Source: a virus
Strand: one strand, 5' to 3'
IMG/VR virus record: IMGVR_UViG_3300046501_000246
DNA length: 64,000 nucleotides
In this document: positions 16,874 through 25,987 of the stretch, piece by piece
Layout of the letters: each line of letters starts with the position of its first letter
Numbering within the stretch: the stretch's first letter is position 1
Made by a program: the position numbers and the translations under genes
Notes under the pieces: generated by a model
The model's database searches: none
The model's input: only the letters and a program-made list of their open reading frames with translations
What the model was told of the DNA's origin: nothing

Positions 16874-16916
16874 TTGACCATGTAAGGAACTTAAATTCTT
16901 TTCCTTACATGGTCAA
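16874..16916 (-). promoter_or_regulatory. 43-bp palindromic promoter cassette, copy 1
   Basis: TTGACCATGTAAGGAA-N11-TTCCTTACATGGTCAA; minus strand gives TTGACC-N17-TAAGTT. Confidence 0.9.
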
Positions 16917-17300: not shown

Positions 17301-17343
17301 TTGACCATGTAAGGAAGATAGAATCTTTTCCTTACATGGTCAA
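17301..17343 (-). promoter_or_regulatory. 43-bp palindromic promoter cassette, copy 2
   Basis: Same 16-bp arms; -10 TATCTT at 17-bp spacing. Confidence 0.9.
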
Positions 17344-18120: not shown

Positions 18121-18163
18121 TTGACCATGTAAGGAACTTAAACGCTTTTCCTTACATGGTCAA
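18121..18163 (-). promoter_or_regulatory. 43-bp palindromic promoter cassette, copy 3
   Basis: Same 16-bp arms; spacer CTTAAACGCTT. Confidence 0.9.
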
Positions 18164-18982: not shown

Positions 18983-19025
18983 TTGACCATGTAAGGAACT
19001 TAAACGCTTTTCCTTACATGGTCAA
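18983..19025 (-). promoter_or_regulatory. 43-bp palindromic promoter cassette, copy 4
   Basis: Identical to copy 3. Confidence 0.9.
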
Positions 19026-19626: not shown

Positions 19627-19774
19627 TAGCTCGACTCCTTGTTTCGATAATCACAATGTAAGGAAAAACAAAACGCTAGTCAACTGTAATTTTTAAAATA
19701 ATTTGCCGCTTTTTGTTCCACATATGTTCCGTTTTAAAAATATTGCAGGTTCGCCGTTCCCATCCCACGGATTG

Positions 19775-23284: not shown

Positions 23285-23432
23285 TGCCTTAGCTCCTATG
23301 TGAAACGTGCTCCATTGCAGTCAACTTAGATGTAATAAAAAGTATGGTCAAGAGTGAATTTTAATTTTTTATATATTGACTTTATATAAAATGTATGGTA
23401 CACTTTATTTTTTGTCAAATTTGAGAAATGTT

Positions 23433-23990
23433 ATGAATTTACCTAAGCCTTTACCAAACATTGAAACTTTGTACGACTTGTTAGAATTGAAAGAGGATTT
23501 TACTTTATATTGGAAAGTAAGACCTGTAAAATATTTTGCTGGAAACAATCCAGAGTTAGCCGCGAAGCGCTACAATAGCAGAGATGCAGGAAAGCCCGCA
23601 TTTGATACTATAAGCTCGAAAGGTTATTTGCACGGTCATATATTTAAAGAGCAATACTTAACGCATAGAATTATCTGGAAAATGATTCATGGTTACGATC
23701 CTCAATATATTGACCATATAGACGGAAATCCTTTAAACAATCATATAGACAATTTGAGGGATGTAACGTTTAGTGAAAATATGAAAAACCAAAAAATTAA
23801 ACGAGAAAATCCTAGTAAAGTCATGGGGGTTTCATTAAGGAAAGATTTAATTTCAAAGCCTTGGCGCGCCGTTATTGGTATTGATGGTAAATCTAAAACT
23901 ATTGGATATTTTTCTTCTAAAGAAGAGGCTATTGCAGCAAGAAAAGCCGCTGAGATTATCAACGGCTTTCATGTCAATCATGGCAGGTAA
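23433..23990 (+). CDS. HNH homing endonuclease with C-terminal AP2-like domain
   Basis: HRIIW...IDHIDGNPLNN..DNLR.VT..EN and W.A.I..DGK...IGYF...EEA..AR..AE. The ORF-track TTG at 23376 is the -35 of its own promoter (TTGACT-N17-TACACT). Confidence 0.92.
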   Translation: MNLPKPLPNIETLYDLLELKEDFTLYWKVRPVKYFAGNNPELAAKRYNSRDAGKPAFDTISSKGYLHGHIFKEQYLTHRIIWKMIHGYDPQYIDHIDGNPLNNHIDNLRDVTFSENMKNQKIKRENPSKVMGVSLRKDLISKPWRAVIGIDGKSKTIGYFSSKEEAIAARKAAEIINGFHVNHGR

Positions 23991-23992
23991 GG

Positions 23993-24211
23993 TTATTCGA
24001 CCTTTGCAATCAAGCCGTCGCGCATCGTGACCTTTGCGAAAAATTCCCTGCCGCCGATATGCGGATTGATTGCCGGTCTATGCGCCACAACGAAAGAGCC
24101 ATTGGCTTTGAATTCTTCGCCAAACATAGATGTTTCGCGATACTTAAGCGGCTTGCCCGTCGCCTCTTTAAGCTCTTTCTTGCTCTTGTAGCCAGTTACC
24201 AAAAGTGTCAT
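23993..24211 (-). CDS. small conserved-looking phage protein (Y.SKKELKE..G..L.Y.ETS.FG.E)
   Basis: GAGGAG RBS; start reassigned to MTLLV. Confidence 0.75.
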   Translation of the reverse strand: MTLLVTGYKSKKELKEATGKPLKYRETSMFGEEFKANGSFVVAHRPAINPHIGGREFFAKVTMRDGLIAKVE

Positions 24212-24422
24212 GCCGTTTGCTCCTCTTGTTGATGCATACATAATGACATGTAAGGAAACGGAGTCAAGCGGAAATCTTTATAAAAATAATTTTATTTCGT
24301 GCTATTTTTCTATTGACTACATGTCAGAATCATCATATTCTAAAAACAATTCAAAGACGCCGCAAAAGCCCGAAGGGCGGGGCCGAGGATGGGAACGGCG
24401 AACCTGCCCGCTTCAAAGAACG

Positions 24423-24563
24423 GAACATAGAGGGAACGAACCATGAACTGAAACAAAACGGGAACAAAGATATAACATTTAGGGAACAAAACTGTAACAA
24501 AAAGGGAACGGTGAAACAAATCGTGAACAAACCAAGAACGTGCCAAATGTTCTGGTTTTGTTC
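24423..24563. repeat. 11-bp-phased array of (G/T/A)AAC half-sites forming GAAC-N7-GAAC boxes
   Basis: NAAC at 24423/34/45/56; 24451/62/73/84/95/506; 24514/25/36; GTTC at 24549/60. Confidence 0.85.
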
Positions 24564-25107
24564 CCCTCGATTCATAGAAATTTTTGAAATAATTTTAAAT
24601 AAAATTGAAACGCTGGCGTGCCAAAAATCGCCGGTTCGCGCCAGAAAAAATGGGACATTGTGATGAGGGAAAAATGGACTCTCGTGATAAAAAAATTACG
24701 AGTCTGTGATGAATGAAAAAACCGGCTCTCTCGATCCGCGTGATGCGATAAGGAGGATCGCGTCATGGGAGAGATGAGCCGGTTCTTAGCAGCATTTGGT
24801 AAAGAGGTTGAAACCAAATGCTGTTTCTGCGATAAAGATTAAAAATGATGCCACGTTCTAGGTGTATGAAGAGAAAGAGGTTACAAATCCAACATAGCAG
24901 GGCTTTAACCTGCGCACCAATTATGATTGAAAGTCTGTTAGGTTCGCCACCGTCAAGCCGCTTGTTGCAGTTCACGGCTTCCTAGAAATTGAACCATCAT
25001 CATCTCATACGATGCCTCTATGACTCGTTACAATCACTAATGCTGCAAACATTAGTTAGAGGTTCGTTCCAATCATGCCACTTGTGTACTTGACCTAAAT
25101 GATTCTG

Positions 25108-25735: not shown

Positions 25736-25987
25736 TCAAGCAACAGACTTCCAAGACTTGCTCAGGTTGATCAGCTGCTTGCCGCGAGCCGTTGCGCCAT
25801 AGACGATCTTCTTGCGGCCCCGAGTCGCGGCCTTAATAGCTTCCGTGGTAACGCGTTCCTTTTCAGCGATGTAGCCGAGGTCGATCAGTTCCTGTTTAAC
25901 CGCGTAAGGCACAACATCCTGATTGGTCAGGAGGGCCTTAAGCTGAGCCACGATGCCGGGGTTGGTGCGAAGTTCCTTGCGAGCCAT
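25736..25987 (-). CDS. small winged-helix-like DNA-binding protein (PadR/MarR-like wing)
   Basis: L.DLGYI...RGRKKIVY..T..G wing motif; monocistronic with TTGACG-N17-TAGATT promoter and AAAGGAG RBS. Confidence 0.6.
   Translation of the reverse strand: MARKELRTNPGIVAQLKALLTNQDVVPYAVKQELIDLGYIAEKERVTTEAIKAATRGRKKIVYGATARGKQLINLSKSWKSVA

Follow-up and report, generated by a model that had tools for sequence, protein, structure and literature searches.

A conserved, phased array of GAAC half-sites at the early-gene block of an uncultured phage, a candidate docking platform for host LexA

Which protein reads a cluster of NAAC half-sites that recur every 11 bp in the non-coding DNA of an uncultured phage? 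The cluster lies in a viral DNA stretch of 64,000 nucleotides (the window), and a first-pass annotation took it for stacked LexA boxes of the alphaproteobacterial type that could titrate host LexA, or alternatively for a binding array of a phage replication or packaging protein. The window is phage DNA, coding for a large terminase, a tail-collar protein, GDSL and beta-helix tail proteins and ten tRNAs. Within a cluster of seven tRNAs, ARAGORN reports one with anticodon CTA (931-1004, − strand; an amber suppressor, labelled Pyl), which hints at readthrough or recoding of TAG in part of the genome.

The array and the ORF-free module around it

The array comprises 13 direct and 2 inverted units in the window. 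Its features and those of its surroundings are listed from left to right, by window position.

23993..24241, − strand: first early gene, 82 aa, PHROG 37117
24240..24267, − strand: P(−), the predicted sigma-70-like promoter of the first early gene, carrying the early-promoter word CCTTACATGTCA
24313..24341, + strand: P(+), a predicted sigma-70-like promoter (TTGACT-17-TATTCT) that would fire into the array and is kept in relatives
24368..24378: leader hairpin GCCC-GAA-GGGC, with other stem letters in relatives (GACC..GGTC, GCGC..GCGC)
24387..24407, + strand: conserved 21-mer GGATGGGAACGGCGAACCTGC, immediately left of the array
24418..24540, + strand: direct NAAC(A) half-sites, divided into three phase groups, the cores invariant in three lineages
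24424/35/46/57 (AAC starts), + strand: group A, 4 units at 11-bp spacing
24452/63/74/85/96/24507 (AAC starts), + strand: group B, 6 units at 11-bp spacing
24515/26/37 (AAC starts), + strand: group C, 3 units at 11-bp spacing
24549..24563, − strand: inverted dimer GAACAAAACCAGAAC, read on the + strand as GTTC-N7-GTTC (GTT starts 24549 and 24560)
24570..24612: AT-rich tract right after the array, its AT-richness preserved in all lineages
24613..24644: GC-rich hairpin CTGGCG...CGCCAG
24646..24716, + strand: three ~24-bp repeats AAAAATGGnnnnnnGTGATRA, present in three or four copies in relatives (L205-L207, L213)
24717..24823: two stem-loops (arms 24717-28/24776-87 and 24790-800/24813-23), with stems of different letters at these positions in relatives

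When the coordinates were rechecked, every half-site position in the first-pass annotation proved correct to the base, as did its count of exact GAAC-N7-GAAC boxes, with three on the + strand (24423, 24434 and 24525) and one on the − strand (24549). The phasing, which had been described as exact throughout, is so inside each group but not across the whole array, because shifts of 6 and 8 bp separate the groups. An additional GAAC at 24418 stands ahead of group A. The direct units have the 11-bp consensus GGGAACAAAAC and tend to alternate between GGGAACA and RTRAACA, and TRF reports a 22-bp super-period in the array as well.

This 11-bp pattern of AAC is far beyond chance. Runs of four or more AAC, with periods of 7 to 15 examined on both strands, occur nowhere else in the 64-kb window, and AAC density reaches 19 per 150 nt in the array region against a window mean of 2.5. 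As a null model, every AAC triplet of the segment was retained and the positions were randomised in 20,000 rounds. Ten AAC pairs at lag 11 were observed, compared with a mean of 1.9 under random placement; none of the 20,000 placements reached ten such pairs and two gave a run of six or more. DNA similarity searches, near and distant, of the array region against cultured phages returned no match. A comparison of the region with Rfam gave nothing credible, no tRNA lies in it, and in the literature we found no published description of such phased GAAC arrays in phages.

The array lies in non-coding DNA upstream of the early-gene block, as first annotated, in a stretch of about 860 bp devoid of a credible ORF. 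P(−) and P(+) diverge from an AT-rich gap, P(+) is followed by a conserved leader, CAATTCAAAGAC, and a minus-strand gene cluster to the right of the stem-loops points back at the array. No promoter is overlapped by the array: measured from P(+) it spans about 75-215 nt on the downstream side, and it lies past the −35 of P(−) by about 150 bp. A 25-aa ORF at 24765-24842 has a strong RBS, yet is probably not a gene because its ATG is lost in L206. The ~24-bp repeats, of which no further copies stand out within the window, have the word CGTGA in common with the preferred spacer of the array (AAACCGTGAAC). An HNH homing-endonuclease gene, missing at the equivalent place in relatives, is inserted between early genes on the opposite strand (23376-23990, +), immediately to the left of the first of them.

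The 21-mer occurs exactly twice in the window, at 24387-24407 (+) and at 19745-19765 (−), and the second copy is part of a satellite of the array.

19714..19765, − strand: inverted partial copy of the left end of the array, consisting of the 21-mer, a T-run and the single dimer GGAACATATGTGGAACA

Next to both copies of the 21-mer is a T-rich stretch, followed by a GGAACA-N6-GGAACA dimer; in relatives, the T-run next to the 21-mer gives a terminator-like fold. The satellite is flanked by a terminator hairpin and an early promoter, with a −35 about 35 nt downstream of it, and similar satellites are seen in relatives, where 0.6 to 4.3 kb separate them from the array. The lone LexA box that had been noted at 19715-19729 is indeed present, but it is not an independent site: as a partial duplicate of the left end of the array, it cannot count as independent evidence for a LexA regulon. 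A single GAAC-N7-GAAC box is unremarkable in itself, because the number outside the array is near chance level (four in the window; for the window with the array counted in, the expectation is about 2.1).

Conservation in uncultured lineages and its bearing on function

Relatives were found by an exact search with 18 bases of the 21-mer, which returned four IMG/VR contigs, and by a protein search of a metagenome collection, which led to a fifth array-bearing lineage. Array and module are conserved in four other uncultured phage lineages, and all relatives found carry the complete ~860-bp module in identical order. The proteins flanking it are 60-98% identical between lineages, and the non-coding module aligns better than many adjacent genes.

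Copy number ranges from 2+4 (direct plus inverted units) to about 15+2. The low end is represented by G001, a complete relative of 184,940 bp with 2 direct units and two inverted dimers, and the high end by L213, with about 15 direct and 2 inverted units. The length of G001 points to a genome size near 185 kb for the phage of the window as well. The 11-bp phasing is retained, with group offsets of 6 and 8 or of 6 and 7, and every relative has one or two inverted dimers. Exact GAAC-N7-GAAC boxes number 3-9 per array in relatives. The repeating unit is a dimer, the 17-mer GGAACAAACCGTGAACA (GAAC-N7-GAAC), whose spacer is kept across lineages, and two TAAC units (ATAACA and GTAACA) are strictly conserved despite breaking the GAAC consensus.

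The array is genuine, and it is both conserved and selected. The selection falls on the AAC cores: between the window, L207 and L206, 45 of 45 core positions are identical, compared with 70 of the 103 other array positions (Fisher p=1.9e-6). We regard it as almost certain that proteins dock on the array as double-stranded DNA. It is very improbable that the repeats act instead as nucleic-acid structure or RNA, be it a hairpin or terminator made of a direct and an inverted dimer or a GGA-rich sponge RNA transcribed from P(+). Although P(+) is aimed into the array and about half of the units read GGA, as for a sponge RNA, the leader folds no better than shuffles, selection is on AAC and not on GGA, and units stand on both strands, as expected for recognition of double-stranded DNA. 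A perfect 17-bp palindrome, with T-rich DNA after it, is made up by the inverted dimer and the last direct one in L207, L206 and L213, but in G001 and the window the arms are unpaired beyond the GAAC cores, and stem and T-run do not abut.

The module as a whole recalls the injection-stop (iss) region of phage T5, an untranslated stretch of 1.2-1.6 kb that borders some 10 kb of pre-early genes on their inner side and has, like the module, an inverted partial copy at a variable distance of some kilobases (Davison, bioRxiv 10.1101/866236). Both are ORF-free, conserved (here better than the flanking genes) and similarly dense in repeats and hairpins, with paired boxes of a kind read by a host DNA-binding protein; the inverted partial copy of the module lies 4.6 kb away in the window and at a variable distance in relatives. 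The module likewise stands at the inner edge of the early block, at the head of about 10 kb of small genes with promoters of their own. It nevertheless seems improbable that it serves as an iss-like boundary of a first-injected or terminal early region in which GAAC dimers replace paired DnaA boxes, a role that would be compatible with LexA as the ligand. T5 differs in having DnaA boxes instead of GAAC dimers, A1/A2 genes and two-step injection, whereas the phage studied here gives no sign of a terminal repeat or of two-step injection, and its early block has no large A1-like gene, all its ORFs being smaller than 210 aa. The 121-bp end repeat of G001 looks like an assembly overlap, and the T5 DnaA model is itself in silico only. 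As an analogy, the likeness is architectural only. For many IMG/VR contigs the end falls a short way upstream of a homologue of the 82-aa gene, a position that might have marked a genome terminus; this reading was dropped because the upstream sequences are heterogeneous and often coding, and the contig ends are uninformative.

Comparison with alphaproteobacterial LexA operators

The best cultured matches of the terminase are 38-43% identical and belong to large siphophages. Ten of the best 12 infect Sphingobium, Ruegeria, Rhodobacter, Phaeobacter, Erythrobacter or Citromicrobium; the best matches also include one Microcystis phage. On the basis of these hosts, an alphaproteobacterial host is plausible. 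Counted against the LexA reading are the GC content of the window, 44%, and a 663-aa protein nearest to Microcoleus, Ruegeria (Noahvirus) and Pseudomonas phages.

The alphaproteobacterial LexA box is GTTC-N7-GTTC or GAAC-N7-GAAC, as in Caulobacter, Rhodobacter and Rhizobium (PMC3323433, PMC9578287), and about 97% of Caulobacter SOS promoters have a single box (bioRxiv 10.1101/2025.01.26.634973). We sorted the LexA DNA-binding domains in 301 Pseudomonadota genomes into a high-scoring and a low-scoring class and took approximately 300-310 nt upstream of lexA from 40 genomes of the latter as operator reference. From its box type and LexA length we infer that the low-scoring class is the alphaproteobacterial type. 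An exact GAAC-N7-GAAC is present upstream of lexA in 38 of these 40 genomes, and the E. coli-type motif in none of them. The earlier identification of the array unit with the alphaproteobacterial LexA core is borne out by this comparison: array and lexA-gene operators have the same tetranucleotide, the same direct-repeat orientation and the same 7-nt spacer. Five of the 40 lexA promoters even contain three GAAC half-sites in 11-bp phase, that is, two overlapping boxes.

Outside the core the phage boxes resemble lexA operators only weakly, as far as these letter comparisons can tell. Real operators follow the consensus T-G-C-R-GAAC-A-C-A-n-n-T-R-GAAC-A. In them GAAC is followed by A in 61 and by G in 20 of 86 cases, and similarly by A in 10 and G in 4 of 15 phage units. 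The preferred phage spacer AAACCGT is atypical in having G-T where lexA operators favour T-R (positions 9-10). At non-core positions, a position weight matrix gave array boxes +0.2 to +0.3 bits and control boxes −1.3, no significant difference (p=0.09), compared with +4.75 for real operators. Measured as distance to the nearest operator over 11 non-core positions, array boxes had 4.37 mismatches and controls 5.04, a small effect (p=1.7e-4; p=0.005 against letter-shuffled boxes), and the p-values of both comparisons overstate independence because the phage boxes are homologous to one another. A subgroup of genomes of about 3 Mb in the lexA reference (L433-L472) has a common operator, GTGAACGAATnnGGAACA, that resembles the GGAACGAATCAGGAACA dimers of G001 and L213.

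The array also departs from alphaproteobacterial SOS operators in its architecture. Such operators consist of one or two boxes, whereas the array has 13+2 half-sites in three phase groups, conserved TAAC units among them; it lies off promoters and not, as a LexA operator would, at the promoter of a damage-inducible gene; and it sits in a lytic-looking phage. In ten cultured relatives, at least eight of them with recorded alphaproteobacterial hosts, no three or four phased GAAC or RAAC units were found. Many genomes outside the Alphaproteobacteria contain four phased GAACA units as plain tandem repeats, which was counted against LexA. Looser patterns (five AACA or four GAACA at 11 bp) were rejected as a guide, their matches being mostly unrelated tandem repeats; in genome contigs, no alphaproteobacterium was among the matches listed.

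Several observations favour a host factor. The smallest array, that of G001, and all satellites consist of dimers only, which counts for LexA. Neither G001 nor G002 (the contig with L206, 66% complete) yielded a LexA-type domain, and G001 in six frames shows no LexA-type, OmpR-type or Rep3-type (Rep3_N) binder, counting for a host factor and against one encoded by the phage. Arrays of GAACA at 11 bp with variable spacers are present as well in the unrelated phage contigs L046 and L120, the latter 1.1 kb upstream of a terminase that is 26% identical; a shared host factor is therefore favoured. In L046 (2100-2420), a homologue of the 82-aa early gene, 59% identical, is directly followed by three ~60-bp repeats and then by GGGAACAAA three times and AGAACA three to four times at an 11-bp period. 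A tie between the array and this gene family was rejected, since phased arrays occur only in L002 and L046 among 80 loci.

Weighing these points, we tentatively favour the reading that the array is a multi-site docking platform for host LexA of the alphaproteobacterial type, with a role as boundary, roadblock or sink. Host class, LexA binding and any physiological effect are here what we infer from sequence comparison. The docking sites would be dimers of the form GGAACA-N6-GAACA, with the sites of any one phase group facing the same side of the helix and a rotation between groups that stems from the 6- and 8-bp offsets. Host LexA that recognises the GAAC-N7-GAAC direct repeat would be the most likely ligand. 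Between P(+) on one side and the AT-rich tract with the repeat module on the other, it would coat about 140 bp at the head of the early block, and the coated array could then act as a DNA-damage-sensitive roadblock or boundary to transcription from P(+). The titration of LexA proposed in the first-pass annotation does not hold at one genome copy, where 4-9 boxes cannot titrate the repressor; after replication, hundreds of genome copies with 4-9 good boxes each might form a LexA sink.

A phage control region with LexA-type boxes, tandem ones included, has a precedent in the Bacillus tectivirus GIL01, in which host LexA boxes tie phage transcription to the SOS state through a LexA-dependent switch (PMC6182141). 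GIL01 differs from the array in its Gram-positive palindromic box, in having few sites, which overlap promoters, and in the phage co-factors gp7 and gp6 (PMC6182141). If LexA binds the array, a virulent phage would read or drain the DNA-damage signal of its host through a DNA element alone, with no phage repressor. More doubtful is the generalisation that large lytic phages of Alphaproteobacteria carry selected, copy-variable LexA-box arrays at the boundary of the first-expressed DNA and use LexA as an architectural or sensing protein, be it as a damage-gated roadblock, as a post-replication sink or as a T5-iss-like anchor in which it replaces DnaA. We found no description in the literature of LexA being used in this way on phage box arrays.

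Phage-encoded binders and other repeat families

Helically phased, clustered direct repeats are characteristic of iteron origins (RK2 oriV, pPS10, lambda ori) and of ParR/TubR centromeres, the latter with iterons of 11-12 bp; the type I iterons of P4 read TGTTCACC. Less likely than LexA, in our estimation, is a corresponding role for the array, as an iteron or operator array for a phage-encoded binder of direct repeats, or for another host binder, that would form a replication origin or regulatory nucleoprotein platform. The alternative offered in the first-pass annotation, a phage replication or packaging protein as ligand, thereby keeps some probability. The layout is origin-like in that direct repeats phased at 11 and 22 bp, with an inverted copy, lie beside an AT-rich tract of 43 bp that is followed by a GC-rich hairpin. 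The variable copy number is also iteron-like, and the extended 17-bp site is kept across lineages with its fixed spacer AAACCGT and its alternating units. Unlike iteron origins and centromeres, however, the complete relative G001 lacks a Rep3-type initiator, and no DnaA box (TTATCCACA, up to one mismatch) is present in the module (24.2-25.1 kb). A partition system or centromere was rejected, as the complete G001 has no ParA (AAA_31) or Tubulin domain.

The genes neighbouring the array belong to no informative Pfam family, and a single candidate phage binder is visible near it.

25736..25987, − strand: 83-aa lineage-specific protein with a probable winged-helix fold, a candidate DNA binder found in every array-bearing lineage

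This protein occurs in array-bearing lineages only (4 homologues in 5.8 billion proteins), its gene holds a position about 1.2 kb from the array, and G001 has a second paralogue across the array. Co-occurrence is trivial, however, in a single syntenic block, and the GAACA arrays of L046 and L120 are found with no homologue of the protein. Its AlphaFold model (mean pLDDT 77.7) matches MarR/PadR winged helices with VIA Z 5.3-6.6 and an rmsd of 2.5-3.3 A over 63-73 residues, values below the confidence level that the aligner itself states, and the Foldseek match to the same families is weak (E about 0.1). MarR/PadR dimers normally bind palindromes, to which the abundant ATGTAAGGAA palindromic operators of the phage are a better fit than direct repeats, so that the protein is a candidate only and may serve the operators of the early promoters instead of the array. 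If a phage protein does bind, the module would be a well-delimited candidate origin or boundary element in uncultured phages of about 185 kb in which almost nothing is annotated. Whichever protein binds, the 140-bp fragment offers a clean and cheap substrate for binding tests.

Two further repeat families were noted. Between 16840 and 19050 the window contains four copies of a palindromic promoter cassette, TTGACCATGTAAGGAA-N11-TTCCTTACATGGTCAA, all perfect palindromes (at about 16875-16915, 17302-17342, 18122-18162 and 18984-19024), each of which leads straight into a near-identical leader and a start codon, the small minus-strand gene being a different one every time; related words, ACATGTCA, are found in P(−) and P(+) next to the array. 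A large class of 11-bp arrays, distinct from the GAAC array, was seen in IMG/VR contigs (L082-L199), in which units such as AACAAACAACT or GTGAACAACAA are repeated 4-8 times and nearly always end in ...AACA(A/C)AAACAAGAATGATAAGAA; it extends over well over a hundred viral contigs, prophages of isolate genomes included.
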